From positions 1,950,001 through 1,982,000 of the forward strand of contig NZ_LN885086.1 in NCBI RefSeq assembly GCF_001458695.1: a stretch of DNA of 32,000 bases, written 5' to 3'. Both the position numbers and the translations under genes were made by a program. The DNA comes from Candidatus Nitrospira inopinata (GTDB taxonomy: Bacteria; Nitrospirota; Nitrospiria; Nitrospirales; Nitrospiraceae). Below are positions 83 through 18,123 of the stretch, one piece after another; position 1 is the stretch's first letter; every line of letters starts with the position of its first letter. The notes beneath the pieces were generated by a model that worked only from the letters and a program-made list of their open reading frames with translations, did no database searches and was not told where the DNA came from.

Positions 83-649
83 CTAGCTCACCACCCGCGT
101 AAGCGTGTTTTCATCCGTATGATGAAACAAATCCGGACGGCCGGGCATGAGAAGCTGGGTGTCTTCCCGATAGTGAAAGTGATTCCGATCTAAGATCGTC
201 ACGGTCAACTCGTACCGCACGGTCTTGAACTCCTTGGCGAGAAACCGGTTTGAGCAAATGCCATAGGTGTCCGATCCGGCCTCGGCCAGCAGGGTAAAGG
301 TCTTGGCAGTGGGCTCGGCCGTGCCGCCGGCGATCAGCGCCACCCCGCGCGGCACGATGAAACAGCGCAACGCCTGTCGCTCCTCCGGATCCCAGAGCCA
401 GTAGCCGACTTCTTCATGGAAGGGATCGGTCTCCCCGATCCGCCGCGCCACCGTGGCGTAGCGTAAGCCGTACAACACCTGCTCGTGATTGCGTATCGGT
501 CCGATCGGCTCAAAAGTGATCCGTTCGCGAAAGACGTTTCGTTCCGTCCCGCGATCGTCCCCCGGAGCCACGTCCGCACCTTTATCCCCCTCCCACACAC
601 CGGCCAGCAGCGCCAGCGGCCCGAGCTGTTTAATCAGATCCGAATCCAT
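83..649 (-). CDS. Nitrobindin-like heme-binding beta-barrel protein (DUF1794/THAP4-like), about 188 aa
   Basis: Taken from ORF 83..748(-). I place the start at the internal ATG at 649 (MDSDLIKQLGPLALLAGVWEGDKG...). AAGGAGG (rc of 654-660) lies just upstream, and the 33-aa extension is Arg/His-rich. The N-terminal L-x-x-L-x-G-x-W-x-G-x-G motif and the size fit the DUF1794 family as I recall it. Confidence 0.7.
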   Translation of the reverse strand: MDSDLIKQLGPLALLAGVWEGDKGADVAPGDDRGTERNVFRERITFEPIGPIRNHEQVLYGLRYATVARRIGETDPFHEEVGYWLWDPEERQALRCFIVPRGVALIAGGTAEPTAKTFTLLAEAGSDTYGICSNRFLAKEFKTVRYELTVTILDRNHFHYREDTQLLMPGRPDLFHHTDENTLTRVVS

Positions 650-886
650 AAGGCCTCCTTCTTGTTGACGATGGGACACCGGTGAGGTGACAAAAGCCCG
701 GACTGCGCCATTCGTAACCGTTCCGTATCTGTGGCGAAGCCGGCTCACTATCCCAGTCGTACAGGTTGTCCGTCAAGCGGGAGATGGAGGTCGGGCCCAT
801 TCGTCGAAGCAGCAAAAGCGCCAAAACTCCTATTGCTTCGTCTTGGTATACGTGTTAAGACGGAGCCTCCTCACCGAAGAAACGGT

Positions 887-1207
887 ATGATCATGACTCG
901 AGACTCTCACGTGGCGCGACAGTTCGGCGCCAGCATCACGTTGAAGCGAGCAGAAAGTTCCGATCGGCAGCTTTTCCTTGTGAAATACGACCCATCCAAT
1001 CAGACGATCCCGGGCCGGGTGAAAGCCATGGGGGGGAAAATCGTTTTGAGTGCGTCCGGTTGGATGTTGGCGGAACTGCCCTTTTCGCCGGCCATGAGCC
1101 TTCAAAAGACCCCGGGATTTCATTTCGTCAGGGGAGTGTCGATTGACCAACGCCGGCTGGAGCTGTTTCGGCGTGCGGTCGAGGGAGCAAAATCCGATCG
1201 CGGATAA
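887..1207 (+). CDS. Small hypothetical protein (106 aa), first gene of the 887-4139 operon
   Basis: Taken from ORF 731..1207(+). The start is moved to ATG 887 (MIMTRDSHV...) because the upstream part of the ORF is Arg/Pro-rich and overlaps the divergent promoter region. Codon third positions are G+C-rich, as in neighbouring genes. The pattern LFLVKYD...GGKIV...GWMLAELP...PGFHFV loosely resembles subtilase prodomain/I9-like folds. That resemblance is only a weak impression. The RBS is weak. Confidence 0.5.
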   Translation: MIMTRDSHVARQFGASITLKRAESSDRQLFLVKYDPSNQTIPGRVKAMGGKIVLSASGWMLAELPFSPAMSLQKTPGFHFVRGVSIDQRRLELFRRAVEGAKSDRG

Positions 1208-1231
1208 ACCGACCGAAAGAAGGAGGTGCCT

Positions 1232-1753
1232 ATGCCCAGTGTAGGTCAGGAGTTGCTGGATACCCCGTTTCCGGAAATGGTCACCAAATTGGCCCTCGGC
1301 ATCGCCGCGGGGCAAACGGCGTTGGACGAAGCATCGGTGGCGACGGCGAAACTGTTGGCCGAGACGACCGTGCCGATCGTGCTGAACGTCACACAGACCA
1401 TCGCCGCCGACGGGACCGTCAGTTTCTCACAGTCGCCCCCCGTGGACGTCTCGTTGCTGCAGATCGGTCTGCTCCCGACGTTCTATCAGTTCACCGAGGC
1501 GACGATCGAAGTCACCATGGATATTAAGACCACCACAAGCCGCGAAACCAACGTGAAGATCGCGGCGCAGGCCAAGGTGGGCTTCGCGGTCTGGAGCGCT
1601 TCCGTAAAGGTGGACGTGGCGCATAACCGCAAATACGGCAAAGAGGTCAGGGGCACGGCCCGACTGTTCACGAGACTGGCTCCGGTGCCGCCTCCCCCGC
1701 GCATTGCGCCGGAAGTGACCGTGGTCGATAACCGTCAGGGTGGAGGCGTGTAA
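1232..1753 (+). CDS. Hypothetical protein, paralog A (173 aa). N-terminal helix, conserved PTFY...EATIEVTMDIK core, Pro-rich tail ending in GGGV
   Basis: Taken from ORF 1226..1753. I prefer ATG 1232 because AGGAGG at 1221-1226 lies 5 nt upstream. It is a clear paralog of the next gene. Its architecture recalls DUF2589-type proteins, but that is from memory and low confidence. Confidence 0.8.
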   Translation: MPSVGQELLDTPFPEMVTKLALGIAAGQTALDEASVATAKLLAETTVPIVLNVTQTIAADGTVSFSQSPPVDVSLLQIGLLPTFYQFTEATIEVTMDIKTTTSRETNVKIAAQAKVGFAVWSASVKVDVAHNRKYGKEVRGTARLFTRLAPVPPPPRIAPEVTVVDNRQGGGV

Positions 1754-2283
1754 TGTCGATTCGTCTGACTCCGCGCGACGCGAATGGAGGGCAAGAGCTG
1801 GCGGGGGCGTCGCTGGCCGACCTCATCACGCAACTGGCGGAAGCCGTCGCCGAGGGACAGGCGAAATTGGATCTGTCGTCGGCGCAGGTCGCAGCCGAGC
1901 TGGCGAAGACGAAGGTGAAATTCATTCCGGCTATTCGGCAGATCATTGAAAAAGACGGCTCCATGCGATTCGAGCAGGCCGAGCCGATGGAGGTCAGCCT
2001 GCTCGATCTGGGCCTTCAGCCGACGTTCTATTCATTCTCGGAAGCCACCGTGGAAGTCACCATGGATCTCAAAGTCGTCGAGGAAACCACCGCGACGGGA
2101 AGCGGCCGTGCGCCGGCCAAGATGCTGTTTGCCAGCACCAGGTCGTTGCGGACCGAGCGCAAGCTGAATCGTGACGTGAAAATCTCCTCGAAGATGTCCG
2201 CCAAATTGGTTCCCGTGCCGGCGCCACCGCTGCTCGGCCCGGTGCGTGACGTCGAAGACCGGCGCGAAGGGGGCGGCGCCTAA
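1753..2283 (+). CDS. Hypothetical protein, paralog B (176 aa), same architecture, tail ending in GGGA
   Basis: ATG 1753 overlaps the upstream TAA (TAATG at 1751-1755). GGAGG lies at 1742-1746. The core VSLLDLGLQPTFYSFSEATVEVTMDLK matches paralog A. Confidence 0.85.
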   Translation: MSIRLTPRDANGGQELAGASLADLITQLAEAVAEGQAKLDLSSAQVAAELAKTKVKFIPAIRQIIEKDGSMRFEQAEPMEVSLLDLGLQPTFYSFSEATVEVTMDLKVVEETTATGSGRAPAKMLFASTRSLRTERKLNRDVKISSKMSAKLVPVPAPPLLGPVRDVEDRREGGGA

Positions 2284-2308
2284 AGAGGAACGATAATGGA
2301 GGAGGCCG

Positions 2309-2794
2309 ATGGCGGGTGAGATGAAAGTCGAAGATCTGCTCGGCGAGTTGGGACAGGCGATCCATACGGCGCAGATGCGTCTCAACAAGCAGAGGCAGGA
2401 ACGACCTCCGGGGTCGGCGGGATTGCCCACCACTCTTTCCATCAGCGAGACCGATCTCGAAGTCAAGATTCTGTTTGAGGAAAAACAGGGAAGCGCCCTG
2501 GTGAGGCCGGTCGGCCGGGCTTCCGCCGATACGCCGTCCGCCGCCTTTTCCACGCTCCGCGCGAAGATCGTGGCGGTGGCCGATGAGGACGTCCGTCCGC
2601 CGCAACGGACTCCCTCCGACGTGCGCGAGGAGATCATCAAGCGTCCGGATATCGCGCGTCTTGCCAAGATCTTCGGCGATCTCCAGGTCACGACCACGTT
2701 CGTGCCGGAGGCGGCCCGCTGGCTGGTGGACGTGGTGGAGCCGTCCGGCTCCGTGCTGCGGCGCATTCAGGTGGAAGACGGGAAGTCCCAATGA
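2309..2794 (+). CDS. Hypothetical protein (161 aa) whose N-terminus repeats the helix + SETDLEVKILF motif
   Basis: GGAGGAGG at 2298-2305 precedes ATG 2309. LEDLLGELGQAIHTAQMRL and LSISETDLEVKILF mirror LADLITQLAEAVAEGQAKL and FSFSEATVEVTMDL of paralog B. Confidence 0.75.
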   Translation: MAGEMKVEDLLGELGQAIHTAQMRLNKQRQERPPGSAGLPTTLSISETDLEVKILFEEKQGSALVRPVGRASADTPSAAFSTLRAKIVAVADEDVRPPQRTPSDVREEIIKRPDIARLAKIFGDLQVTTTFVPEAARWLVDVVEPSGSVLRRIQVEDGKSQ

Positions 2795-3381
2795 GCCCCT
2801 CCAAAGCCTCCAAGACCTCCAAGAACGGCCCTGCGTCCGCCGGCTCTCCGTCCGGGCCGACGACCGATGACCGACTCCAAGCGTTGATCGCCGAAAATCG
2901 GAAGCTCGGAGAAGAGTTGCAGGAAGCCCAAAAACTGGCTGCGGCGCTCGAAAAAACCAACGCCCAGTCGATCGCCGCTCGCGACAAGGCGTTGAAAGAG
3001 GCGGAAGTCGTGAAAAAAACCGCCGCGGAACTGAAAGCCCAGGTTGAAGAGCTGGCGGCCTCCAACCGCAAAATGACCGCCGAGATCGCGCGTCTCGCGC
3101 GTCAGGTGGAGCGCACGCCGCTGAATCCGGTGTCGCCCGAGGAGGCGGCGGCTCTGTTCGATAAGTTCATCGGCGGCATGAAGCTGTCTCGCACGCTCGA
3201 ACTGCGCGATGTCAATCTTACCTTGAAGGTCGCCACGGGCAAGTTGGGCAACCAGACCGTCCTTTTGCTGCCGGAGCCGGGCGCGGTCGATCCGGCGTCG
3301 CTCCACGAACTGAAGTTCAACCTGCGCGGCACGAACGTTGCCGAGGCATCGGACGCCGATCGTCCGGTCAAACGCGGATGA
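2791..3381 (+). CDS. Coiled-coil protein (196 aa). Low-complexity Ser/Pro N-terminus, long heptad-rich helix, C-terminal LELRDVNLTLKV strand motif
   Basis: ATGA start/stop overlap at 2791-2794. The segment RLQALIAENRKLGEELQEAQKLAAALEKTNAQSIAARDKALKEAEVVKKTAAELKAQVEELAASNRKMTAEIARLARQ is typical coiled coil. Confidence 0.75.
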   Translation: MSPSKASKTSKNGPASAGSPSGPTTDDRLQALIAENRKLGEELQEAQKLAAALEKTNAQSIAARDKALKEAEVVKKTAAELKAQVEELAASNRKMTAEIARLARQVERTPLNPVSPEEAAALFDKFIGGMKLSRTLELRDVNLTLKVATGKLGNQTVLLLPEPGAVDPASLHELKFNLRGTNVAEASDADRPVKRG

Positions 3382-4139
3382 GCAAAGAATCCCCCTCGGC
3401 GCGGCTCAAACGGTTGAGTCAGGAGGGAAAGCTCGCCTATGAAGCCGGGCGCTACGGTGAAGCCGAGAAGTGCTGGCGCGCGGCCCTGCGATTGGCGAAA
3501 CATGGCGCGCCGGGCACGGCCGTGGCCCTGCGCAACAACTTGGCAGGACTGTTTCACGCTCAGAAAAAGTACGCTCTTGCGGCGAAGTACTTCGCCGACG
3601 CCCTTGCCGTCTGCTCTCACGAGGATCCGGCCGCCGCTCCTTTGCGCGCCACGATTTTAAACAATCTCGGCGAGCTGTATCGCACCCAGGGAAAGACCGA
3701 ACGGGCTGCCGCATCGTTCGAGCAGGCCATTGCAATTCTGGAACGGTCGGCGGGCGGTCCGACGGTTCAACTCGCCCCGATGCTGAACAATCTGGCCGAG
3801 CTTCATCGGGCTACGGGAAAGCGTGAGCAGGCCGAGCCGCTCTATCGACGGGCGTTGGATTTGCTGGAAAAGACGCTCGGGCCCACACATGCCCAGGTCG
3901 CCGTGGTTCATAACAATCTCGGCGGGCTGCTGCTCGACGCCGATCGATTGGAAGAAGCCCAAACGGCCTTCGAGCGCGCGTTCGCGGTCCTGAGTCAAAC
4001 ATTGGGAGAACGGCACCCGCAAACGGCGCAGGTCATGCTCAACTGCGCCACGGCGTTGCGCCGTCGAGCCCATTCCCTCGAATCCCAAGCTCGTGCCCTG
4101 TTGACCCAAGTAACCGCCGACCATGCCTCGAAGGGGTAG
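3378..4139 (+). CDS. Tetratricopeptide-repeat protein (TPR_10/TPR_12, kinesin-light-chain-like), 253 aa
   Basis: ATGA overlap at 3378-3381. Repeated modules of the form NNLAxLyxxxGkxxxAexlyxrAL occur (NNLAGLFHAQKKYALAAKYFADAL, LNNLGELYRTQGKTERAAASFEQAI, LNNLAELHRATGKREQAEPLYRRAL, HNNLGGLLLDADRLEEAQTAFERAF). Confidence 0.85.
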   Translation: MSKESPSARLKRLSQEGKLAYEAGRYGEAEKCWRAALRLAKHGAPGTAVALRNNLAGLFHAQKKYALAAKYFADALAVCSHEDPAAAPLRATILNNLGELYRTQGKTERAAASFEQAIAILERSAGGPTVQLAPMLNNLAELHRATGKREQAEPLYRRALDLLEKTLGPTHAQVAVVHNNLGGLLLDADRLEEAQTAFERAFAVLSQTLGERHPQTAQVMLNCATALRRRAHSLESQARALLTQVTADHASKG

Positions 4140-4264: not shown

Positions 4265-4334
4265 CTGCCGCCGCTCGCGCGGCGAGACGAGAATGGATCA
4301 ACCGCCCGCCCCACGGAGGTCGAGAGGAGTCTCA

Positions 4335-5711
4335 ATGCCGGAAGTTCCTGCCAAATTGTACGTCGAGAAATTGCTGAAGGAGAGCCGCAGTGACGCAAGG
4401 CGGTTGGCCTTGGTGTCGGCGGCTGTCAAGGATTCGGCGCTGCGAGCGATGGCCGATGAGCTGGAAGCCGATGAACAGGCGATTCTCGCCGCCAATGAGC
4501 GGGACGTCGACGCCCTTGGTGCGTCGTACGAGGGCGACGTCGGCAAGGACCGAATGAAGGACCGAATGAAGGAATTGGTGGCGCGCGTGCGTCTGACGGC
4601 CGAATCCATCAAGGAGATGGCCGATCGGCTTCGCGTCGTCGCCGACTTGCCCGATCCCGTCGGCGCCGTCACCGGCAGATGGGAAAGGCCGGATGGACTG
4701 CAGGTCGAGCGGGTTCGCGTTCCGATCGGGGTGATCGGCGTCATCTCGGAGATGACTCCGCTGGTAACGGTCGAATCGATCGCGCTGTGCCTCAAGTCCG
4801 GCAACCTCTGTGTTTTTCGGGGCGCCCCCGAGTGGAAGGAAACGCATCGGGCCCTGGAAACGGCGTTGCGCCGCGCGGTGGAACGAAGCGGGCTCGCCGC
4901 CGGCCCGTGGATCGTGATCGACCGCCCTGACAAAGAGATAGCCCTCGAACTGATACGGTCCGGTAAAAACCTTGACGCCTTGATCACGCGCGGAGGGATG
5001 GGGCTTCGCAAGGTCGTGATGGAACAGGCCAAGGTGCCGGTGTTGTGTCATGACGGAGGGTTAACGCACCTCTACGTCGATGGGGAAGTCGACCTTCCGC
5101 TGGCGCAAAACGTGGTCATTAACTCCAAAGTCCAACGGGCCGCAGCCGCCAATTCGCTTGATACGTTGTTGGTCGAACAGATCGTCGGACGGCAATTCTT
5201 GCCTCCGCTGATCAACCGGTTGCTCGAGCAATTCAAGGTCGAGGTTCGGGGTTGCCCCAAAACCATCGCCCTGATGGGGCAGATGGCGATGACGGGCCAC
5301 ACGGCGATCGTTCCGGCGACGGACGCCGATTGGCGGACGCAGTTTCTCGGGCCGATCTTGGCCGTGAAGATGGTGGAGGGACTGGATGAAGCGATCGCCC
5401 ACATTGCCGGCCACGGTCCTTGTCTCACGGCGGTGATCGCGACGGATCGCTATGAGTCGGCGATGCGATTCGCGCGCGAGGTCGATGCCGGGGCCGTGTT
5501 GGTCAACGCGTCCTCGCGGCTGAACGCGGGAGACGGTTTCGGGCTCGGGGCCGATATCGGTCTCGGCACGGCGCGCCTGCACGCCAAGGGGCCGATCGGG
5601 TTGGAGCAGTTGACTTGCGAGAAATACGTCGCCTTCGGAACCGGCCAATTGCGAGCGCCCCATCCGGTTCCGGACACCTACTTCGACGCCATCATGTTGA
5701 AACGGGCGTGA
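4335..5711 (+). CDS. proA: Gamma-glutamyl phosphate reductase (ProA) family protein that is divergent and lacks the catalytic Cys
   Basis: Taken from ORF 4293..5711. The start is set at ATG 4335 (MPEVPAKLY...) with GAGGAG upstream. The protein is collinear with ProA: VRVPIGVIGVISE..., ITRGGMGL, LVNASSRLNAGDGFGLGADIGLGTARLHAKGP. The nucleophile motif reads QRAAAANSLDTLLV instead of QRP(S/G)TCNxxExLLV. Confidence 0.75.
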   Translation: MPEVPAKLYVEKLLKESRSDARRLALVSAAVKDSALRAMADELEADEQAILAANERDVDALGASYEGDVGKDRMKDRMKELVARVRLTAESIKEMADRLRVVADLPDPVGAVTGRWERPDGLQVERVRVPIGVIGVISEMTPLVTVESIALCLKSGNLCVFRGAPEWKETHRALETALRRAVERSGLAAGPWIVIDRPDKEIALELIRSGKNLDALITRGGMGLRKVVMEQAKVPVLCHDGGLTHLYVDGEVDLPLAQNVVINSKVQRAAAANSLDTLLVEQIVGRQFLPPLINRLLEQFKVEVRGCPKTIALMGQMAMTGHTAIVPATDADWRTQFLGPILAVKMVEGLDEAIAHIAGHGPCLTAVIATDRYESAMRFAREVDAGAVLVNASSRLNAGDGFGLGADIGLGTARLHAKGPIGLEQLTCEKYVAFGTGQLRAPHPVPDTYFDAIMLKRA

Positions 5712-5756
5712 CGTCCGTCGGGCGTCCATCGCATCGCCGTCCGTCGAGGCAAATTC

Positions 5757-7007
5757 GTGACGGAGGAGAAAAACGACGAGATACGGAAGGCGCTTCACGA
5801 CCATCTTGCGCAGTGGGGGCTCAAGCGATGGGCGACGGCCCGCGAGTACCTTGCCTGGCAGCAACGACTGGTAGCTCCCGAAACTCTTGAACGATTCGCC
5901 GAACAAGCCGAGCGAAGACGAGGCGGCCAGTCGTGCGCCGACGTCGCCTTTTACGATCTCTCGGCTCAGCCAGGCCTCCTTTCCGTCCTTCACAGCCAAC
6001 GGTACGATTATTATGAATCCGCGGGGTTGTCCGTGGCGTCTCGTATCGGAGACGCCGCCTGCATCCTCGATTTTGGCTGCGGAGTGGGAATTCTCACGAC
6101 GTTCTACGCCCGTCTCTTTTCCGATCGCCGTTTCGTCGGAATCGATCGTTCGGAAGCTTCGATCGCGGCCGCGCGACGCAAGGCCGACGAACTGGGTTTG
6201 AGCAACGTCCGGTTTGAGTGTCTGGACGTCGGCGCCGATCGCAATGGGCCGTCCGAAGCCTATGATCTGATCCTGTCCACCCACGCGTTGGTTCAACACG
6301 AGCGGGACCCCGGTCTTCCGAGTGCGAGCTGGCGGACTTTTGAAAGGGCGCGGGACGCCGGTCAACAGGCGGCGTTCGAACGTCGCACCGGCATGGGGGC
6401 CAGGCTTGACCGGCTCGCTTCAGTCTTGACTCGACAAGGGCGGATGATCGCGCTCGAAAAAACCAGACAGCTCGCCAGGCGGGTGCCGTTTCAACGGGCC
6501 ATGGCGGCCAGGGGAATGCATTTAATCGAGAAGCCGGAGCTGATCAGATACCGGATTTTTGAAGATGCGACGGATGACGGTCCGCTCTATCACGTGAGGA
6601 AAGGAATCGAGCCTTCGCTGGAATGGGACGAGTCGCCGGAGCCCGATGACGGCCTTCCTTTTGATCCCGTCTGCGTCACCAAGTCGTCGCGCGAGGTCGG
6701 CGCTCCCCTGTACGAAAACCACAGGCCGTCAGCGCAAGCGGCGTGGGAACGGCTGATCGACCGCATTGTCACCAAAGAAGCGACCCGTCGGGAGCCGGAT
6801 GGCCGGGAACTGCACGTGGAGCTGGGTATCGCGAACGGGCTTGCCTATCTTTACTGCGCCAATACCTTTGATCAGCGACAATTGGTCGTATTCGAGTCGG
6901 CCCATGCACACGCGCTCGAATCGTATTATAGGGAGATTGTAGAAGGCATGCCGTCACCGGCGCCATCGGGGAATTCACCGCGCGCCGATCGCGAAAAACA
7001 GAAGTGA
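5757..7007 (+). CDS. Class I SAM-dependent methyltransferase with a long C-terminal extension (416 aa)
   Basis: GTG start at 5757. Motif I is ILDFGCGVGILT. An acidic residue follows at the end of strand 2 (FVGIDRS), then the post-I region CLDVGA. About 200 aa of C-terminal sequence are unassigned. Confidence 0.8.
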   Translation: MTEEKNDEIRKALHDHLAQWGLKRWATAREYLAWQQRLVAPETLERFAEQAERRRGGQSCADVAFYDLSAQPGLLSVLHSQRYDYYESAGLSVASRIGDAACILDFGCGVGILTTFYARLFSDRRFVGIDRSEASIAAARRKADELGLSNVRFECLDVGADRNGPSEAYDLILSTHALVQHERDPGLPSASWRTFERARDAGQQAAFERRTGMGARLDRLASVLTRQGRMIALEKTRQLARRVPFQRAMAARGMHLIEKPELIRYRIFEDATDDGPLYHVRKGIEPSLEWDESPEPDDGLPFDPVCVTKSSREVGAPLYENHRPSAQAAWERLIDRIVTKEATRREPDGRELHVELGIANGLAYLYCANTFDQRQLVVFESAHAHALESYYREIVEGMPSPAPSGNSPRADREKQK

Positions 7008-7016
7008 GAGCACCGC

Positions 7017-7047
7017 CGGCGAGCCGTTCGGAACATGCTTGGCTCGC
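7017..7047. terminator. Possible bidirectional terminator hairpin between the convergent methyltransferase and lon genes
   Basis: GGCGAGCC (7017-7024) pairs perfectly with GGCTCGCC (7040-7047). The loop is 15 nt and only a weak T-run follows (gttcttcc). Confidence 0.35.
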
Positions 7048-7061
7048 CGTTCTTCCCGAGC

Positions 7062-9470
7062 TTACCGTGAGGCGATCGACGAAGCGGCCGGTTCCTCGGT
7101 ATCTTCGTGCGCGGACGCGGGCGATTCTTGATCGAACGCCGCGCGAAGGACCTCTTCGATCCGTTCGACCAGGACGAAGGTCAACCCCTCACGGACTTCC
7201 GCCGGGACTTCCTTCAAATCCTTCTCGTTCGCCTTCGGCAGAATGACGCGCGTAATGCCGGCGCGATGGGCCGCCAACACCTTTTCTTTGATGCCGCCGA
7301 CCGGCAGGACCAAACCGCTCAAGCTGATTTCGCCCGTCATGGCCGTGTCGCTCCGGACGGGTTTCCCGACGTAGGCCGAGGCCAGCGCCGTGACCATCGT
7401 CACACCGGCCGACGGTCCGTCTTTGGGAATGGACCCGGACGGCACATGGATATGGATGCCGTTGCGCTTGAAGCGGGAGATGTCGAGTCCCATGCTTTCG
7501 GCGTGCGACCAGAGATAGCTCCGCGCGGCTCGAGCCGACTCCTGCATGATGTCGCCCAGTTGGCCGGTCAGCGTCAGATCATGGTTGCCCGGCAAGAGCA
7601 TTGATTCGACGTAGAGGACGTCGCCGCCCGTGGGAGTCCAGGCCAACCCCGTCGCCACGCCGGGCGGCAGATTTTTTCGGGCTTCTTCGGGGATGAACCG
7701 TTCGGCGCCGAGCCAATCCCCCAGCGCGGCGGCTTGGATGACGACGGGCGTTCGCTCCCGACCTTCCGGCAATTCGGCGAAGGTCAGCGCGATTTTTCTC
7801 GTCAGCCGGCCCAACATCTGTTCAAGCTGACGCACGCCCGCTTCTCTCGTGTACCGGGTGATGATCAGGGTGAGCGCCTCGTCCGACAGGACGGCCTGGT
7901 GCGGCTCGATACCGGCTTCCTTCAGCCGGCGAGGCCACAGATACCGCCGGGCGATTTCCGCCTTTTCACGCTCGCTGTAGCCTTGCAGGCGGATGACTTC
8001 CATGCGGTCCAGCAACGGCTGACTGATCGTGTCAAGCGTATTGGCCGTCGTAATGAAAAAGACCTTCGATAAATCGAAGGGAAGATCCAGATAGTGGTCG
8101 CGGAACGTATGGTTCTGCGCCGGGTCCAGAATTTCCAGCAGAGCGGACGCGGGATCGCCGCGGAAATCGCGCCCCAGCTTGTCCACCTCGTCGAGCATCA
8201 ACACAGGGTTGTTGACACCGGCTCGACGGACGGCTTGGATGATGCGGCCAGGCAGGGCTCCGACGTAAGTGCGGCGGTGGCCCCGCAGCTCCGCTTCGTC
8301 GTGGACGCCGCCCAAGCTGAATCGCTCGAAGGTTCGTCCCATGGCCCGCGCGATCGACTGGCCCAAACTGGTCTTCCCGACGCCCGGAGGGCCGACCAAG
8401 CAGAGGATGGGGGCCTTCGCCGAGGGGTTCAGCTTGAGGACGGCCAGATGTTCGACGATGCGGTCTTTGACTTCCTTGATGCCGTAATGATCTTCTTCCA
8501 ATACCGCTCTGACCCGTGAGAGATCGAAACGTTCATCGGACGCCTTCGTCCAGGGCAGTTCGAGTACAAGTTCCAAATAGGCCCGCAGGACTTGATGGTC
8601 CGGCGAGGAGGGCGGGACCTTGGCCAAGCGATTCAACTCGCGCTCGACTTCCTTGCGCACGTGATCGGGAAGATCGGCTTCCGACACCTGCTTTTTGAGG
8701 GCCGAGATCTCGCCGTCTTCGCCCTCGCTTTCGCCGAGTTCCTGCTGGATCGCCTTGAGCTGTTCGCGCAGAATATATTCCCGCTGGCTCTTGGAGATTT
8801 TCTTCTGGGCGTCGTTGGCGATTTTGTCGCGAAGCTGGAGAATTTGGATTTCCTTCGAGAGCGCGGCGTAAAGGCCGCGGAGCAAGTCGACGGCGGAGGA
8901 ACACTCCAGCAGCGTTTGCTCTTCCGCTACCGTCAAATTGACCAGCGAGGTGATGCGATAGGCCAAGGCGACCGGATCGGATTCGTCGACCAAGGCGGCG
9001 CTGATCTCTTGGATGCCCGGAGATTGAATCGATCGCGAGAGATCGGACAGCAGTTCCTTAATCGCGCGATGGATGGCCTGTGCCTCGGTTGCCGTCGAGT
9101 CCGACGGGTGTTCGAGCAACCGCGCCCGCACCTTGAGGTACGGGGTCTTCTGTTCTTCTTTGATCAGCACGACACGATCCAATCCTTGCACCAGGACGTG
9201 CAGGCCGCCCTCGGAGGACTGACCGATCTGTTTGATGATCGCTTTGGTGCCGATGGTGTAGAGATCGGCCAAGCCGGGCTCTTCGGTCTGGGGGTGGCGC
9301 TGGGCGACGACTAAGATCGTTTTGTCCTCGGTCTTCATCGCCGCGTGAACCGCCGCGACCGAGCGTTCACGTCCGACGGTCAGCGGCATCATGACGCCGG
9401 GAAAGAGGACCGTCCGTTTGATCGGGAGTACAGGCAGAATCGTTAAGACGTTGTTTTCCACGGGATTCAT
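7062..9470 (-). CDS. lon: ATP-dependent Lon protease (endopeptidase La), 802 aa
   Basis: The N-terminal LON domain begins LPVLPIKRTVLFPGVMMPL. Walker A is GPPGVGKTSLGQSIA. The catalytic Ser motif is PKDGPSAGVTMVTALAS. The protein is full length. Confidence 0.97.
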   Translation of the reverse strand: MNPVENNVLTILPVLPIKRTVLFPGVMMPLTVGRERSVAAVHAAMKTEDKTILVVAQRHPQTEEPGLADLYTIGTKAIIKQIGQSSEGGLHVLVQGLDRVVLIKEEQKTPYLKVRARLLEHPSDSTATEAQAIHRAIKELLSDLSRSIQSPGIQEISAALVDESDPVALAYRITSLVNLTVAEEQTLLECSSAVDLLRGLYAALSKEIQILQLRDKIANDAQKKISKSQREYILREQLKAIQQELGESEGEDGEISALKKQVSEADLPDHVRKEVERELNRLAKVPPSSPDHQVLRAYLELVLELPWTKASDERFDLSRVRAVLEEDHYGIKEVKDRIVEHLAVLKLNPSAKAPILCLVGPPGVGKTSLGQSIARAMGRTFERFSLGGVHDEAELRGHRRTYVGALPGRIIQAVRRAGVNNPVLMLDEVDKLGRDFRGDPASALLEILDPAQNHTFRDHYLDLPFDLSKVFFITTANTLDTISQPLLDRMEVIRLQGYSEREKAEIARRYLWPRRLKEAGIEPHQAVLSDEALTLIITRYTREAGVRQLEQMLGRLTRKIALTFAELPEGRERTPVVIQAAALGDWLGAERFIPEEARKNLPPGVATGLAWTPTGGDVLYVESMLLPGNHDLTLTGQLGDIMQESARAARSYLWSHAESMGLDISRFKRNGIHIHVPSGSIPKDGPSAGVTMVTALASAYVGKPVRSDTAMTGEISLSGLVLPVGGIKEKVLAAHRAGITRVILPKANEKDLKEVPAEVREGLTFVLVERIEEVLRAAFDQESPASAHEDTEEPAASSIASR

Positions 9471-11337: not shown

Positions 11338-11494
11338 AAGGTTGAGAGTCTCGACCTTCAATTTGTATGTCTTATATATCGTATCACACCATACCACGAG
11401 AAAGGGCCGTTGAACAGGTCGATGGTTTGATTTTGGAGACCCCGGTCCCTAGAATGCCGGCTTGCAATGCCGGTTTGTCTGGAGGGACGATGGG

Positions 11495-12223
11495 GTGAAG
11501 GCTCGACGGGGGACTCCGAAAAATCGGTCGGGGAAGGGAAATCGCGGCTATGGGACGACGCTCGACTCGTCAACCAAGCGCCGGTTTCAGCAGCGTCTCC
11601 TAAAATGGTATCGGGAACATGGTCGTGATCTGCCGTGGCGAAAAACGTCGGATCCCTACCACATTCTCGTGTCCGAAGTGATGTTGCAGCAAACGCAGGT
11701 GGACCGCGTCATCCCCAAATATCATGAATTTTTGGAGCGTTATCCGAGTTTGGAAGATCTGGCGGAAGCGCCGGTGTCAGAGGTGAAAAAGACCTGGTAC
11801 CCGCTGGGGTACAATGTTCGGCCCGAGCGGCTGCATAGCATCGCGTGTGAAACGGTTGAAAAGTATGGGGGAAAGTTGCCTTCGGACGCGGAGGCCCTGC
11901 TGTCTTTCAAGGGCATCGGGCGATATACCGCTGGCGCGATCCGCTCGTTCGCGTTCAACGAGGACGCGCCGATCCTGGACACAAACGTCAGTCGGGTGCT
12001 TCATCGGGTGTTTGTGGCCGAGGGAGATCCCAAGGCGCAGAAGTCGAAATTGTGGGAGTTGTCCGAAGCCTTGATTCCTCGGGGCAGGGGCTATGATTTC
12101 AACCAAGCCATCATGGATTTCGGGGCGATGGTCTGCACGGCCCGGGATCCCTATTGTCTGCTCTGTCCGATGAAGTCGTTCTGTAAGACGTATCCGTTCG
12201 GCTCCAAAGCCTCCGGTGATTGA
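11495..12223 (+). CDS. mutY: A/G-specific adenine DNA glycosylase, MutY catalytic (HhH-GPD + 4Fe-4S) domain only
   Basis: Motifs present are LPWRKTSDPYHILVSEVMLQQTQV, FKGIGRYTAGAIRSFAF, ILDTNVSRVL and the cluster loop CTARDPYCLLCPMKSFC. I prefer GTG 11495 (GGAGGGA at 11481-11487) over TTG 11462. The protein ends about 25 aa after the Fe-S loop, so it has no MutT-like C-terminal domain. Confidence 0.85.
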   Translation: MKARRGTPKNRSGKGNRGYGTTLDSSTKRRFQQRLLKWYREHGRDLPWRKTSDPYHILVSEVMLQQTQVDRVIPKYHEFLERYPSLEDLAEAPVSEVKKTWYPLGYNVRPERLHSIACETVEKYGGKLPSDAEALLSFKGIGRYTAGAIRSFAFNEDAPILDTNVSRVLHRVFVAEGDPKAQKSKLWELSEALIPRGRGYDFNQAIMDFGAMVCTARDPYCLLCPMKSFCKTYPFGSKASGD

Positions 12224-12232
12224 GAATCGACC

Positions 12233-12643
12233 ATGAAGATGATCGAGGTGGCGGCCGGGCTCATCCGCCGAAACGGGCGATACTTGATTGCTCGGCGGAA
12301 GTCCGGCACCCATCTGGCCGGGTTTTGGGAATTCCCGGGCGGCAAGCGAGAAGCGGGCGAATCGTTGACGGAATGTCTGCAACGGGAACTGTTTGAAGAA
12401 TTGGGGATCCGAATCGACCTGCCGATCCCGTATCAAATCATCAGGCACGACTATCCTGAAAGAATCGTGGAGCTGCATTTTTTCCGCTGCGCCATCGAAG
12501 AGGGAGAGCCGACGGCCATAGAGTGCGAGGAGATTCGATGGGTGCGACCCGACGAATTGGCCGCGTTTGAGTTCCCCCCGGCCGACCGCCCGATCGTCAA
12601 GGCCTTGCAGCGCGACGACGAGGAAGGAAGGGGTGGGCGATGA
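12233..12643 (+). CDS. mutT: 8-oxo-dGTP diphosphatase / (d)NTP pyrophosphohydrolase MutT
   Basis: The Nudix box is intact: GKREAGESLTECLQRELFEELGI. WEFPGGK and the 136-aa size are typical of MutT. Confidence 0.85.
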   Translation: MKMIEVAAGLIRRNGRYLIARRKSGTHLAGFWEFPGGKREAGESLTECLQRELFEELGIRIDLPIPYQIIRHDYPERIVELHFFRCAIEEGEPTAIECEEIRWVRPDELAAFEFPPADRPIVKALQRDDEEGRGGR

Positions 12644-13356
12644 AGATCGTACTCGACATTGAAACCGTTCAGGCCCCTCGCGAGGAATGGGCTCGCATTA
12701 TAGGAAAGCCCCCGCAAAGCCAGGAAGACTTTGGGTTTGAACCGAGCGGCGATCTTTTTACGGCGGGGGCCGCCGAGGAGCGACGAAGGGCGGAGGACGA
12801 GCTGTACGCCAAGTCGGCGTTCGACGGCACCTTCAGTCGGGTGGTGTGCATCGGATTGTTGGAGTTCTCCGACCAGATGGAGGCCAGGGGCGCCGTCGCC
12901 TGGTACGGTCAAAACGAGCGGGAGTTGCTCAGCCGGTTCTGGGCGCGCCTCGCTCAGATTCGGCCCACGCTGTTTATCACACACAACGGCCTGGGATTCG
13001 ATTTTCCCTTCCTCAAGAAGCGATCGATCATCCATCAAGTCAAGCCGAGCATAGAGATCAATTTGGCCAAATTCAGGACGGAACCGATCTACGACACTAT
13101 GGCGATATGGAGCAACTGGGATACGAGGGGCTGGATCAAGTTGGACGTGCTGGCCCGCGCCTTACAGGTTGAAACCAAATCGGGGAGCGGGGAACAGGTG
13201 GCCGAGATGTGGGAAAAGGGTCAAGGGCCGGAGCTCGCCCGCTATTGTTTGCAGGATACCTACGTGACCTATGCCTGTTATTGTCGCATGAATTTCAAAC
13301 AGCCCCTGTCTCGAGAGGTGGTGCTACTGCAGCCTGAGTTGTTGGAGGTGAACTGA
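12640..13356 (+). CDS. RNase H-like 3'-5' exonuclease (PolB-exonuclease-like DEDD fold)
   Basis: ATGA overlap with mutT. ExoI is LDIET. HNGLGFDFPFL and YCLQDTY provide the ExoII/III-like acidic and Tyr motifs. Confidence 0.7.
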   Translation: MKIVLDIETVQAPREEWARIIGKPPQSQEDFGFEPSGDLFTAGAAEERRRAEDELYAKSAFDGTFSRVVCIGLLEFSDQMEARGAVAWYGQNERELLSRFWARLAQIRPTLFITHNGLGFDFPFLKKRSIIHQVKPSIEINLAKFRTEPIYDTMAIWSNWDTRGWIKLDVLARALQVETKSGSGEQVAEMWEKGQGPELARYCLQDTYVTYACYCRMNFKQPLSREVVLLQPELLEVN

Positions 13357-14080: not shown

Positions 14081-14576
14081 TCCAACAAGCTCCTTGCAAA
14101 GAGAAAGAAGAGAGCCACTTTTTGAACATCCATAATTACGGAAAAAATCGGGCATCTCTTGAGCCTCCCAAGAAGTTTGGATGTAAGCCAAGCAAATGTT
14201 ATACCGACTCGGTCATTAGCGATGCCACCACCTAGAGCTGCCGTGCTAAAAGTCTTGCTTAGATAAGCGTATCGGTCTGATGGACTATTTTGCCCGCTCG
14301 CCCGTCGAGGCAGGGGGATGTCGAGAGGGGAATGATAAAGAGCGCGCGTCAATCTCCTTGATTTAGGGGACGTGACACCGTCAATAACGTGACGACCCAA
14401 AGAGGGAACCATATGAAGGATGGAGAGTAAAAAGAGAACAGAAGAGGTGGCATGAGGAGAACAAAGTTGTCCACGAGCGAAGGGTGATCGGTACAGAAAA
14501 TGATCGTTAAGGCCGGCTCATGATCGGTGGGGTCGGGAATGCTCCGAACCGATCGGGACAAGAGAGAGAAGCGTTC

Positions 14577-15911
14577 TTACTTTCCGTAGAGTGTAGCTGC
14601 GGAGGCATCGAAGATGTCTTTGGTGGTCAACGTGCCGGGCTCAAAAGGGTCGGTCCCCTTCTCCCATACGACGGTGATGTTCCCATCCGTTCTTCCCATT
14701 CCTTGAGTGGGAGATTTGGTGGCATTCCGTTCCACCAGCACCTCGACGTGTTTTCCGATATATCTGCGGTTGCGCTCAAGACTGATCCGCCGCTGGATGT
14801 CCACCAACGTCGCCACGCGGGCCCCTTTGACCTGATCGGGAACGTCGTCCGGGTATTTTCTGGCGGCGATGGTGTGTTTGCGCTCGGAATACTTGAAGAT
14901 GTAGGCGGACTCAAATTGAATCCGTTCCACCACCCGTTGGGTCTCCAGAAAATCGTCGTCCGACTCCGAACAGAACCCGCAAATGATGTCCGTCGTGAGG
15001 GTGACGGCGGGAATGAGCGTTCTTATTCGCTCCACGAGCGCCAGATATTCCCCGGCCGAGTACGTTCGGCCCATCAGCTCCAGGATACGGTCGCTTCCCG
15101 ATTGAAGCGGGAGGTGGATGTGTTTGCAAATCTTCGGATGGGTGGCGATGGCCTGAAGCAACGCGGGGGGAAAGTCCTTGGGATGGGGCGAGGTGAAACG
15201 AACTCGATGGATGCCGGGAGTATCCGCCACTGCGCCGATCAAGCGGGCAAAATCCCAGTTTCCGTACCGGTAGGAATTGACGTTTTGTCCCAACAGAGTG
15301 ATCTGGGTGAAGCCGCGGGCCGCCGCGTCGCGCGCCTCGGTCAGGATGGACTCCGGATCGCGCGATCGCTCTCGTCCCCTCGTGTAGGGGACGACGCAGA
15401 ACGAACAAAAGTTGTCGCAGCCCCGCATGACGGTAATCCAGGCGTTGACCCCGTCGTTTCGATCCGGGAGGATCCCTTCATAGGTTTCGTACTCCGAGAG
15501 ATCAAGCGCAAAGCCCCTTTGAGCGAATCCCTGCTCCTGAGCGGCCAGGGCGTTTGAAAGCAACAGGGGAAGCTCTCGATAGGCGTCCGGTCCGGCCAAG
15601 ATGTCGATGAGCGGTTCTTGCCGGGCCAGTTCGCTCTTCAGATTCTGCGCCATACAGCCCAAAACGCCGATCACCAGAGGACGTCGCTTCTTGATCTCCT
15701 TGAGCTCCGTCAGATGCGCGTAAATCTTGTTGTGGGCGTTCTCGCGGATGGCGCAGGTATTGACCAGAAGCACGTCGGCCCGTTCACGATCCGGCGTGAA
15801 CGAGAACCCCTCGCGCTTTAGCAGGGCGCGGACCAGCTCGCTGTCCGACTCGTTCATCTGGCAGCCGAAGGTCTCGATGTGGACCAGGCGGGGCAAGGGG
15901 GTCGCCGTCAT
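14577..15911 (-). CDS. miaB: tRNA-2-methylthio-N6-dimethylallyladenosine synthase MiaB (radical SAM methylthiotransferase)
   Basis: VHIETFGCQMNESDSE marks the UPF0004 domain. The radical SAM motif is CDNFCSFCVVPYTRGRERSR. A C-terminal TRAM-like region is present. The start at ATG 15911 overlaps the upstream stop (ATGA at 15908-15911). Confidence 0.92.
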   Translation of the reverse strand: MTATPLPRLVHIETFGCQMNESDSELVRALLKREGFSFTPDRERADVLLVNTCAIRENAHNKIYAHLTELKEIKKRRPLVIGVLGCMAQNLKSELARQEPLIDILAGPDAYRELPLLLSNALAAQEQGFAQRGFALDLSEYETYEGILPDRNDGVNAWITVMRGCDNFCSFCVVPYTRGRERSRDPESILTEARDAAARGFTQITLLGQNVNSYRYGNWDFARLIGAVADTPGIHRVRFTSPHPKDFPPALLQAIATHPKICKHIHLPLQSGSDRILELMGRTYSAGEYLALVERIRTLIPAVTLTTDIICGFCSESDDDFLETQRVVERIQFESAYIFKYSERKHTIAARKYPDDVPDQVKGARVATLVDIQRRISLERNRRYIGKHVEVLVERNATKSPTQGMGRTDGNITVVWEKGTDPFEPGTLTTKDIFDASAATLYGK

Positions 15912-17245
15912 GGTTGTATCACAAGGTTTGGGGGCCGCTGCGGAACAGCGACCTGTCCCATGACCCAACGGTCCGTTGCGGCCGTGATGGTGACCGGCTT
16001 GATCTGATTATGAAGGTCATCGGTGTCGGCGACGGCTACTTTCGTGAAGTTCGGCGTGGTACCGTGTCGGAGACCATCCTGAACGCCCGTTTCAAAGAGA
16101 ACGGGGACCGTCGTTCCAATCTGCCGGTGATGGAATGCGAGCTGCTTTATGCGCCCGATGTCGCGGAGGACGTCGACGCGCTTGCGGATGATCGAAGGCG
16201 ACACGGCTCGCTGCATGCGGGCTGCGGCGGTTCCCGGCCTCGGCGAATAGGGAAATACATGGAGATAAGAAAAAGGCAGATCCGTCGCGACCGAGACGGT
16301 ATTGCGAAACGCCGCCTCGGTTTCTCCGGGGAAGCCCGCCATCAGGTCGGTCCCCAGCCCGAGTCGAGGGATTTTGGCGACGGCCCGCTCGATCAAATCG
16401 ACGTAAGCCTTGACCGTATGGCGGCGGTTCATGGCGTTCAGGACGCCGTCGTCTCCGCTCTGCAAGGGGACATGGAGCGAGGGGCACAGTTTCGAAGATC
16501 CGGCCAGGAGATCCAGCAACTCGTCGCCGACGGTCGTGGGTTCGATCGACGAAATCCGGATACGGTCGATGCCGTCGACTTGGTCAAGACGCCGGAGCAA
16601 CGAGCAAAAATCTCGGCCGTCGTGAACGTACCGTCCGATGTTCACGCCGGTCAGCACGATCTCCCGATAGCCGCGTGCGGCCAGGCCGGTCGCCTCTTCC
16701 AGAATGTCCTCGAGTCTTCTGCTCCGCTCGTGCCCTCGCGAAAACGGAATGATGCAAAAGCTGCACATGACGTTACAGCCGTCCTGGATCTTGAGGGGCG
16801 CTCTGGTTGAATCCGGCTCGCCGAAGTAAGGAAGATCGAAGTCTTGGCGCGATAGCGTCTTTGTATGGAGAATTTCCGGCGAACGGCGTTTCTCCAACGC
16901 ATCGGCCGGGGGCAGGTACGCCGGCAGATCCAGCTTGAATTGGTTGCCGACGACCAAGTCGATGCCGGCCTCGCGGGTGAGCCGCTCCAAGCCTATTTGA
17001 GCGTAACAGCCGGTCACGGCAATGAACGCATGGGGGGAATGTTTGAGGGTTTTGCGGATCAGATACCGCGACGTGCGTTCGGCGTCCTCCGTCACCGCGC
17101 AGGTGTTGAGCACGAGCAGGTCGGTCGGCCGGCCGAACTCCACCAACTCAAACCCCTTTCGGCGAAGTCCTTCCCCCAACACTGCCGACTCCGCGAGGTT
17201 CAATCGGCACCCCAACGTATGGAGCGATGCCCGGCGACTTGTCAT
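15908..17245 (-). CDS. mtaB: MtaB-like threonylcarbamoyladenosine tRNA methylthiotransferase (radical SAM)
   Basis: Motifs present are SLHTLGCRLNLAESA and CNVMCSFCIIPFSRGHERSR. The start is set at MTSRRASLHTLGC (17245). The longer ORF extension runs into the upstream pseudogene remnant. Confidence 0.85.
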   Translation of the reverse strand: MTSRRASLHTLGCRLNLAESAVLGEGLRRKGFELVEFGRPTDLLVLNTCAVTEDAERTSRYLIRKTLKHSPHAFIAVTGCYAQIGLERLTREAGIDLVVGNQFKLDLPAYLPPADALEKRRSPEILHTKTLSRQDFDLPYFGEPDSTRAPLKIQDGCNVMCSFCIIPFSRGHERSRRLEDILEEATGLAARGYREIVLTGVNIGRYVHDGRDFCSLLRRLDQVDGIDRIRISSIEPTTVGDELLDLLAGSSKLCPSLHVPLQSGDDGVLNAMNRRHTVKAYVDLIERAVAKIPRLGLGTDLMAGFPGETEAAFRNTVSVATDLPFSYLHVFPYSPRPGTAAARMQRAVSPSIIRKRVDVLRDIGRIKQLAFHHRQIGTTVPVLFETGVQDGLRHGTTPNFTKVAVADTDDLHNQIKPVTITAATDRWVMGQVAVPQRPPNLVIQP

Positions 17246-17329
17246 AAGACGAGCATTATAGAGACGGCGCTCCCGTTTGGGCAAGCTCGTGGAAGCGAGG
17301 GGTTTGGCGTGCATGTCAGCCTCGGCTCC

Positions 17330-17720: not shown

Positions 17721-18123
17721 TGCTACCGAACCAAGAATCCATCGGGCGGGCCTGTAATCCTTCGCCGTGGACCGGGATTATTGCAATTCATCCAGATAAG
17801 GTCAGATCGGGAGTTCGGTCCTGCAGTTCACTGGCGTGGATCGGGTCGAGTTGATTGGGAACAGGGCTTTTCGACTTCGCGAAATTTCTGCACAGCCGCG
17901 TCGGTGTTTCGCTGCCATTGCCGACAACGTGCCCTGCATCCGTCCCCGAGCTGGTCGAGATACCGGAGCCTCTCGTAATCCCACGCCCCGAAGAGTAGGT
18001 CCGTGGTCAAAGGGGTCAAACGCCTGGCCCAAACCTATCCCCTGCTCGATAAGAGCAAGATGCTCAACGACATCTCGGCGCCGGTGATGCAGCACGTCAT
18101 CCAAGGTCGCGATGCCATGGAAG

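Follow-up and report, generated by a model that had tools for sequence, protein, structure and literature searches.

A widespread five-gene cassette from Candidatus Nitrospira inopinata that probably encodes a hetero-oligomeric assembly with remote links to Pepco and DUF2589

What might be built by a run of short genes that are locked together from phylum to phylum and resemble no described system? The question is raised by six same-strand genes of Candidatus Nitrospira inopinata, here called g1 to g6, which occupy positions 887-4139 of the window, that is, of the whole stretch of DNA analysed (32,000 nucleotides, nt; NZ_LN885086.1, 1,950,001 to 1,982,000, forward strand). A sequence-only reading of this DNA had described them as a translationally coupled operon of unassignable proteins and had suggested that they form a stoichiometric multi-subunit assembly. 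The analysis reported here leads to a cassette of five genes, g1-g5, whose products probably build a hetero-oligomeric assembly from four divergent members of the DUF2589/Trypco2 (Pepco) superfamily.

The operon itself is the firmest part of the answer. The six genes are joined by the coupling junctions that had been described for them, a TAATG, two ATGA overlaps and gaps of 24-25 nt, all of which are read directly in the sequence (Table 1). The strand motifs quoted for g2, g3, g4 and g5, and the helices before them, were likewise all found in the translations. An alternative start of g2, GTG at 1226, lies in a reading frame that is also open; ATG 1232 is the likelier start because the N-termini of homologues read MPSVGQEL or MSVGQEL. 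A simple scan found no promoter-like site on the plus strand within the block, and the sole terminator-like site on that strand sits inside g6, the count of such sites being below that of shuffled sequence. The intergenic region upstream of g1, presumed to hold the promoter and 5′ untranslated region of the operon, gave no σ70-like site on the plus strand in the promoter scan, and a search for regulatory RNAs and tRNAs around the operon returned no Rfam match and no tRNA. Compared with two Nitrospira relatives, all six genes are under purifying selection (ratio of nonsynonymous to synonymous substitution rates, dN/dS, 0.02-0.41), with the strongest constraint on g2 and g3 and a weaker one on g5 and g6. 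Because of these ratios, and because the g1-g5 block recurs in dozens of unrelated genomes, the arrangement goes beyond chance, and it is virtually certain that g1-g6 constitute a real, conserved and translationally coupled operon.

The distribution of the genes defines which of them belong together. A scan of one genome per species over 185,579 species confirmed at least 106 relatives or loci, of which 80 were fetched. Locus counts refer to 84 fetched loci, in which iterative profiles made from the six window proteins were run against all open reading frames (ORFs); these were called mechanically as the longest ORF, and some starts are over-extended. The g2/g3 family is present in all 84 loci, in two copies in nearly all of them, together with the g1 family in 76 (adjoining g2), the g4 family in 78 and the g5 family in 73. 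The order g1-gP-gP-g4-g5, in which gP stands for a g2/g3 paralogue, is kept in about 62 of the 84 loci and in more than ten phyla; departures from it are mostly contig ends, and g1 is placed between the paralogues in two loci. Conservation as a block, named earlier as a check on all six genes, holds for g1-g5 but not for the tetratricopeptide repeat (TPR) gene g6, found in 12 loci. Thus, g1-g5 are a self-contained five-gene cassette and g6 is a lineage-specific accessory, carried by Nitrospira, by Acidobacteriota and by Pseudanabaena, where it lies upstream of the cassette. The product of g6 is of the TPR_12/TPR_10 type (TPR_12, 147 bits against a cut-off of 30.1, E 1.6e-43, four stretches; TPR_10, 100.7 bits), in agreement with its earlier description as a KLC-like TPR protein. 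No other conserved neighbour shared across lineages emerged when the flanking ORFs were clustered.

The cassette is found in haloarchaea and in at least a dozen bacterial phyla, among them Nitrospirota, Acidobacteriota, Cyanobacteria, Chloroflexota, Actinomycetota, Proteobacteria and Verrucomicrobiota. Among the fetched loci, the carriers are Nitrospira; Solibacteres and Bryobacterales; Coleofasciculus, Pseudanabaena and Limnothrix; many Chloroflexota; Gaiellaceae and other Actinomycetota; Rhodoferax, Albidiferax, Sphaerotilus and Undibacterium; Sandarakinorhabdus, Parerythrobacter and Sphingomonas; Desulfatiglans and Desulfurivibrio; Chlorobiaceae; Opitutae and Pontiellaceae; Gemmatimonadetes; and haloarchaea (Natronomonas, Haloferacaceae). 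Cultured carriers are found in this set, namely Rhodoferax ferrireducens, Undibacterium, Parerythrobacter, Sandarakinorhabdus, Natronomonas and Sphaerotilus sulfidivorans. In the RefSeq record of the last, the only one checked, all five core genes are named 'hypothetical protein', and the 116 homologues found for g3 are also all 'hypothetical' and lack a precomputed Pfam domain. The closest relatives of g3 are in Nitrospira (97%), and g2/g3-type proteins of Nitrospira share 57-64% identity with copies from Acidobacteria, cyanobacteria and Chloroflexi, the value for Coleofasciculus being 64%. The cassette occurs in the order of 0.06% of species and is thus rare yet phylogenetically very broad, a pattern that points to horizontal transfer and with which the cross-phylum identities agree.

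Two groups of loci depart from the common layout. In haloarchaea, the order is permuted to gP-gP-gP(short)-g5-g1, and the gene at the g4 position is matched by the g2/g3 profile; in the loci concerned (L081 5980-9109, L082 5977-8781 and L083), the two paralogues at the front are long ones, and a short third paralogue replaces g4 and is followed by g5 and then g1. A long g4 without g5 is present in five loci. A g5 gene was looked for downstream of the long g4 in these loci and none was found, so they represent a four-gene variant (L035 6434-7432, L047 2573-3523, L060 644-1573, L062 6495-7439 and L070 4112-5089) in which g4 has about 310-330 amino acids (aa). The hosts are metagenome-assembled genomes (MAGs) of Desulfatiglans, Verrucomicrobia, Opitutae, Pontiellaceae and Dehalococcoidaceae. 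In these five loci the C-terminal domain of g4 is swapped for a bona fide PASTA domain and HhH/DUF4332 repeats, and four of the long forms gave Pfam matches to PASTA, DUF4332 and HHH_5. By eye, the C-terminus of haloarchaeal g5 shows two added segments, one PASTA-like and one of the GIGPTYA HhH type, similar to what is fused to the bacterial long g4.

What the four central proteins have in common is best seen from g2 and g3. These are tandem paralogues, as had been claimed, with 40% identity by BLASTP (E 1e-39). Both are long forms, in which the N-terminal helix leads into a β-meander with an additional hairpin. The alignment of their family places invariant residues (g3 numbering) at Q36, S82-L83-L84, G87, P90, F92, F95, E101, D105, R136 and P154-V155-P156-x-P158. 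Within these, the helix holds an invariant [AG]-Q-x-x-L, the block that follows reads S-L-L-x-x-G-x-x-P-x-F-x-x-F, and the P-V-P-x-P motif leads into a short tail rich in proline and charged residues. The signature strand displays a hydrophobic face (A, V, V, M, L, V) and, opposite to it, the invariant E101 and D105; β-moments of the strands reach 0.77-0.97 with strict alternation. The N-terminal half of g4 (aa 1-105, g4N) is a minimal, Trypco2/Pepco-like form of the same core. When g3 was compared with g4N by hhalign (P 2.6e-5), the score was 34.3, whereas 20 column shuffles reached at most 15.2 and the reversed profile 10.9; the aligned region takes in the helix and two strands, PT..SE..EV and ST.R..VA, but not the inserted hairpins of g3. 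Similarly, g4N and the C-terminal module of g5 (g5C) aligned with P 4.1e-6 and a score of 34.1 (shuffle maximum 14.6), far above reversed controls. A direct hhalign comparison of g3 with g5C was not significant. The two scores uphold the claim that the N-terminus of g4 and the C-terminus of g5 reuse one helix-strand core, and this core is very probably common to all four proteins g2-g5. In g5, a minimal copy of it follows a coiled coil whose length in family members lies between about 100 and 400 aa, whereas the end module is conserved, with a helix followed by G-E-x-x-L-K-V-A-F, G-F-V-x-P and L-H-E-x-x-x-R-F as its consensus. Pfam matches of g5 amount to coiled-coil noise.

Structure prediction was informative for one end of the cassette and silent on its main subunits. 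The AlphaFold2 (AF2) monomer of g3 has a predicted local distance difference test score (pLDDT) of 60, with a 32-residue helix, β-strands after it and a disordered stretch at residues 106-144, and Foldseek found no fold match for it in the PDB or BFVD with E below 0.4. Sequence searches of the PDB with g3, the g2/g3 profile and the g4 profile also returned nothing meaningful. Such a poor monomer model would be expected of an obligate oligomer. No transmembrane segment and no hydrophobic segment of signal-peptide or anchor grade was found in any of the six proteins (maximum Kyte-Doolittle mean over 19 residues 1.24), as had been stated earlier. Searched against 1.84 billion cluster representatives, the g2/g3 profile matched 979 clusters at E ≤1e-3 but only 33 at ≤1e-30, which makes the cassette family a small, tight branch of a larger and mostly unmodelled superfamily. 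Distant members of this superfamily include P0275, fused to an OmpA peptidoglycan-binding domain; P0148, the C-terminal segment of which resembles by eye a type IV pilin head with two Cys; P0288 and P0282, with helical extensions of 300-400 aa; and P0146, which resembles a g2/g3 hybrid. Likeness of g2/g3 to tail-tube/Hcp proteins, type IV pilins or gas-vesicle GvpA was considered and rejected: no profile or fold match was obtained, the helix is not hydrophobic and a class III signal peptide is missing. RPW8 matches in 6 of 35 g2/g3 members (best E 0.0046) were weak and were set aside.

The links of the cassette to known families are remote. Pfam, NCBIfam, PADLOC and PHROGs gave no match to g1-g4 and no enzyme-family match to any of g1-g5, in line with the earlier statement that NTPase, nuclease and protease signals are missing; in PADLOC-DB v2, the coiled coil of g5 cross-matched JetC and LmuB only, and g6 matched a generic TPR model. 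DUF2589 (PF11655) gave weak, sub-threshold matches in 8 of 35 g2/g3 relatives (best E 2.7e-4), none to g2 and g3 of the window at E up to 10, and none at E 0.01 to ten mid-range distant relatives drawn from the g2/g3 profile. The earlier mention of DUF2589 was therefore right as a remote relationship, and the g2/g3 family is by these comparisons a separate, unmodelled branch. Trypco2 (PF19631) matched 6 of 35 g4 relatives below threshold (best E 8.9e-6), did not match g4 of the window at E up to 10 and gave no match to g2, g3 or g5. Calling the proteins unassignable was thus too strong in that g4 relatives match Trypco2 and g1 has a propeptide-like predicted fold. The g2-g5 proteins of the window themselves match no family.

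A computational study of conflict systems defined Trypco2 as a domain that co-occurs with trypsin (Kaur et al., 2020; PMC7159879). Trypco1 and Trypco2 have since been renamed Pepco and characterised as pore-forming immune effectors: proteins of about 117 aa that constitutively assemble into 9-10-mer β-barrels resistant to heat and sodium dodecyl sulfate (SDS). The lumen of these barrels is charged, their exterior is hydrophobic and amphipathic helices lie at their base; the proteins become toxic once the partner protease has cut off their C-terminal tail, in which proline and charged residues abound (Evans et al., 2025; bioRxiv 10.1101/2025.11.14.688446). Like Pepco, g2, g3, g4N and g5C belong to small non-enzymatic proteins and follow the layout of a helix, alternating strands with a conserved charged face and then a Pro-rich charged tail. 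The differences are equally clear. Pepco is a single gene whose product forms a homo-oligomer, whereas the cassette has four divergent paralogues of 161-196 aa, with an inserted hairpin region in g2/g3, an extra domain in g4 and a coiled coil in g5; and Pepco adjoins a trypsin-like or caspase-like protease fused to sensors (Avs/STAND, FGE and others), which the cassette does not. DUF2589 is uncharacterised, and the literature found mentions it only twice, in passing; like the cassette, it occurs as several short paralogous genes in a row. One such row of DUF2589-related genes, AF0414-AF0417 of Archaeoglobus fulgidus, was reported to be specifically up-regulated in cells growing on lactate (PMC3949148), and could represent a further, more distant cassette of several paralogues within this superfamily. 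Bacterial gasdermins and EACC1 are alike in concept, as small latent proteins whose β-strand oligomers permeabilise membranes, but they are defined by a partner protease that is absent here, and no sequence or fold relationship to them was shown. No description of the cassette was found in the literature, where Trypco2/Pepco appears solely as one gene with a protease partner.

The first gene adds a partner of a different kind. The AF2 model of g1 (pLDDT 74.5 overall, 86-91 in the core) has a β-α-β-β-α-β arrangement with a C-terminal helix, and its top Foldseek matches in the PDB are almost all subtilisin propeptides (E 3e-3 to 2e-2), including those of subtilisin BPN' and subtilisin E. The best is the Tk-subtilisin propeptide 2z58_B (E 3e-3, target-normalised template modelling score 0.79, root-mean-square deviation 1.7 Å over 64 columns), which was also ranked first when the g1 profile was searched against PDB sequences, with a non-significant E of 0.5. 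The predicted core of g1 shares the open sandwich of the subtilase propeptides (I9), superposing at 1.6-2.2 Å over about 60 residues, with 20-24% identity between g1 and the Tk-subtilisin propeptide. However, g1 is a free-standing protein of 106 aa with an extra C-terminal helix, an N-terminal FGA peptide and no adjoining subtilase, and NikR and ACT-like domains match its fold as well, lower in the list. Neither g1 nor 36 orthologues gave a Pfam match, I9 included, and no subtilase was seen near the cassette in annotated neighbourhoods or in a scan of 137 flanking ORFs. At this marginal level, g1 models as a subtilisin-propeptide (I9)-like fold, and its conserved 'A..FGA' peptide, disordered in the model, suggests a docking segment. 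The AlphaFold and Foldseek check envisaged in the sequence-only reading has therefore been productive for g1 and has yielded no fold match for g3.

Taken together, these comparisons suggest how the cassette might work. The strong co-conservation of the genes as a block is what a stoichiometric multi-subunit assembly predicts, in keeping with the original proposal, and the cassette can be classed as an elaboration of the Pepco/DUF2589 superfamily that has several paralogues, lacks a protease and includes a propeptide-like partner. In the proposed assembly, g2 and g3 would form the body of a ring or barrel, which g4 and g5 would join through the shared core as minor subunits, adding an adaptor domain (PASTA-like, or PASTA with HhH in the variants) and a coiled-coil stalk or tether. 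g1 could assist assembly as a chaperone or cap in the manner of a propeptide, or hold the complex latent, and the TPR protein, where present, would recruit a partner. By analogy with Pepco, the output may be an action on the membrane or envelope in the form of latent permeabilisation. With no protease, NTPase or sensor linked to the cassette, either its trigger would be encoded elsewhere or the complex would be constitutive. The high β-moments of the strands, the polar face with its invariant E101 and D105, and the PVPxP motif before a Pro-rich, charged tail match what a Pepco-type reading expects and lend it support. A ring or barrel of Pepco type is a plausible but tentative form of the assembly, falling somewhat short of probable, and a latent function in membrane pores or cell death is doubtful. 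The filament, shell or sensor-effector complex suggested in the sequence-only reading would be alternative forms. In its widest version, for which confidence is low, the proposal is an unrecognised, protease-independent machine: a hetero-oligomeric ring or barrel of four Pepco/DUF2589 paralogues and a propeptide-like chaperone, spread horizontally from haloarchaea to Nitrospira and serving either as a regulated pore, for cell suicide or stress release with no protease of its own, or as an intracellular structure, with Pepco as a simplified offshoot or sister.

In the genomic surroundings of the cassette, about nine annotated neighbourhoods hold mostly ordinary metabolic, ribosomal, transport or two-component genes. 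A defence or mobile setting, which had been raised earlier as something to look for, was not found there: these contexts show no conserved protease, NTPase or phage genes, no clear defence island and, as mobile-element genes, a single IS200/IS605 pair. Proteases of the trypsin-like or caspase-like type are absent next to the cassette in the same contexts; the peptidase genes present (S58, M3 and Lon) are unrelated and lie several kb off. A Pfam scan of the 137 flanking ORFs, from 54 loci, returned TPR families as the only recurrent ones and no peptidase among the 25 commonest families. PADLOC matches in flanking ORFs were few and belonged to broad families (UvrD-type helicases, radical-SAM pVip, Lon-like BrxL); they are uninformative, bearing neither for nor against an association with defence. 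Some lineages have neighbours of their own. In Solibacterales, and in this lineage only, genes for an Amidase_2 protein and a Volactin-family (actin-like) protein lie directly upstream on the same strand (L003/L004 4806-6931), and in one metagenomic genome a same-strand gene for an MscS-type mechanosensitive channel lies downstream of g5, from which a gap of 37 nt separates it (L086 9764-10810).

Several observations weigh against a Pepco-like assembly acting on membranes. The neighbouring protease that defines Pepco systems is missing, the annotated contexts are mostly housekeeping or regulatory in character rather than defence islands, and PADLOC has no model for the cassette proteins. The sequence link to Pepco is remote, in that only some relatives match Trypco2 or DUF2589 and the window proteins themselves do not, and the connection between g3 and g5C is transitive only. 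Cross-phylum conservation of g2/g3 (64% identity between Nitrospira and Coleofasciculus) is far above what is usual for immune components, which a structural role fits at least equally well. The resemblance of g1 to propeptides is marginal, the β-α-β-β-α-β sandwich being a common fold. Finally, the HhH (DUF4332) fusions in the variants would point to DNA and not to membranes.

The strongest rival is a non-lytic structural assembly built on the logic of gas vesicles or R-bodies and not on that of a latent toxin. The cassette would then form a stable intracellular or membrane-associated scaffold, filament, tube or organelle-like body in which the g5 coiled coil is a spacer or tether and the PASTA and HhH segments are anchors to the envelope or nucleoid. 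Such a role would suit the very low dN/dS of g2 and g3 (0.02-0.04), the 57-64% identity between Nitrospira and cyanobacterial or Chloroflexi copies, the mostly housekeeping or regulatory neighbours, the want of a linked sensor, protease or NTPase, a ruler-like coiled coil of variable length with a conserved end module, and the HhH and PASTA fusions. Gas-vesicle (gvp) and R-body (reb) operons likewise combine small paralogous structural proteins, conserved major subunits and a patchy spread with an absence of enzymes, and the rare, broad and patchy distribution of gvp reaches haloarchaea, as does that of the cassette. On the other hand, no GvpA or RebB Pfam match and no AAA+ gene of the GvpN type is found in the cassette, which encodes no assembly ATPase or chaperone apart from g1, and the only experimentally characterised relatives, the Pepco proteins, are pore-forming effectors. 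Carriers such as Rhodoferax, Sphaerotilus and Natronomonas are not known to have such a structure. A structural assembly of this kind is a serious alternative, judged less likely than a Pepco-type barrel and about as likely as pore formation by it.

An exported surface or envelope structure, whether pilus-like, adhesin-like or attached to the cell wall, is improbable. It would be in keeping with the OmpA fusion of the g3 relative P0275, with the pilin-head-like C-terminus seen by eye in P0148, and with PASTA in long g4 and haloarchaeal g5. Those fusions are single cluster representatives, however, and haloarchaea have no peptidoglycan. Moreover, the hydrophobicity analysis described above gives none of the six proteins a segment suited to export or anchoring, and no conserved gene for a secretion ATPase, secretin or prepilin peptidase lies nearby. 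A prophage or mobile-element remnant encoding virion or scaffold-type proteins is largely refuted and very improbable, for the patchy distribution and the weak matches of g5 to phage scaffold or tape-measure families (PF06810 E 1.4e-4; PHROG tail and scaffold families E ≥0.03), which are confined to its coiled coil, stand against no flanking integrase or phage genes, a single plasmid match, to a 303-kb non-mobilisable Sphaerotilus megaplasmid, and the negatives on which a phage origin was rejected, namely no tblastn match of g3 in 50,697 phage records, no match of the family profile in IMG/VR and no Foldseek match in BFVD.

Table 1. Positions of genes, junctions and sequence features of the operon in the window, with dN/dS measured against two Nitrospira relatives.
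Feature	Nucleotides	Strand	Length or residues	dN/dS	Basis or remark
Upstream intergenic region	749..886	+			between divergent gene (83-748, minus) and g1; from ORF map
g1	887-1207	+	106 aa	0.11	
g1 conserved N-terminal 'A..FGA' peptide	911-937	+	aa 9-17		
GGAGG ribosome-binding site of g2	1222-1226	+			5 nt before ATG 1232, in 24-nt gap; sequence
g2	1232-1753	+	173 aa	0.02-0.04	
g2 helix with [AG]-Q-x-x-L signature	1277-1315	+			family alignment
g2 signature amphipathic strand FTEATIEVTMDI	1490-1525	+	aa 87-98		translation
g2 alternating β-hairpin-like stretch		+	aa about 105-130		β-moment analysis
g2 Pro-rich, charged C-terminal tail, PVPxP-type	1673-1699 onward	+			alignment
g2/g3 overlap, TAATG	1751-1755	+			stop of g2 overlaps start of g3; sequence
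g3	1753-2283	+	176 aa	0.04	
g3 helix	1813-1908	+	aa 21-52		alignment/model
g3 signature strand FSEATVEVTMDL	2035-2070	+	aa 95-106		translation
g3 KLVPVPAPP motif	2203-2229	+			alignment
GGAGGAGG ribosome-binding site of g4	2298-2305	+			in 25-nt gap before ATG 2309; sequence
g4	2309-2794	+	161 aa	0.10-0.41	
g4 strand ISETDLEVKILF		+	aa 45-56		translation
g4 C-terminal domain, small conserved α/β	2612-2782	+	aa 102-158		
g4/g5 overlap, ATGA	2791-2794	+			stop of g4 overlaps start of g5; sequence
g5	2791-3381	+	196 aa	0.13-0.22	
g5 coiled coil (after a low-complexity N-terminus)	2866-3114	+	aa 26-108		
g5 C-terminal module: helix and strands LELRDVNLTLKV, TVLLLPEP, LHELKFNLR		+	aa about 116-185		homologous to g4 β-part
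g5 strand LELRDVNLTLKV		+	aa 136-147		translation
g5/g6 overlap, ATGA	3378-3381	+			stop of g5 overlaps start of g6; sequence
g6	3378-4139	+	253 aa	0.15-0.28	

In the remainder of the window, ordinary neighbours lie at 83-748 (minus strand), 4293-9470, 11462-13356 and 22184-25765, and include a THAP4/nitrobindin-like haem-binding protein, a proA-like aldehyde dehydrogenase, a methyltransferase, a Lon protease, an HhH-GPD glycosylase, a PolB-type 3'-5' exonuclease and a class II (B12) ribonucleotide reductase with a TSCPD domain. Up to about 12 kb, the window is syntenic with the Nitrospira MAG JANDJI010000004. Long ORFs with no Pfam match at 1e-5 are found at 14520-19188, in or beside a low-GC patch (GC 0.523 at 14-15 kb); they lie at 14520-15557, 15914-16810 and 16865-17506 on the plus strand and at 18124-19188 on the minus strand, and long opposite-strand ORFs overlap them. 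About 22 kb downstream of the cassette, at 26063-30902, a small islet resembling defence or restriction-modification loci encodes an AbiJ_NTD4-domain protein (26063-26884, E 1.5e-38), a C5 cytosine DNA methylase (27868-29070) and an SDH-type ClpP-like serine protease (29829-30902), with GC dipping to 0.52-0.53 at 26-28 kb. This islet was not seen beside the cassette in other genomes.

The cassette is widespread and unannotated: no Pfam, NCBIfam, PADLOC or PHROG model covers g1-g5, and the genes are present in cultured strains. Their retention together over more than ten phyla and into the archaea, with one order in most loci and very strong constraint on the two main subunits, suggests that the assembly matters to its hosts. 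Pepco, shown only in 2025 to form pre-assembled β-barrel pores, gives this cassette a concrete experimental handle. The question that the locus now raises is what a Pepco-type assembly would do with no protease at its side and a free-standing, subtilisin-propeptide-like protein beside it. Whether the answer proves to be a new regulated pore or a new cellular structure, either would extend what is known of the superfamily and of DUF2589.

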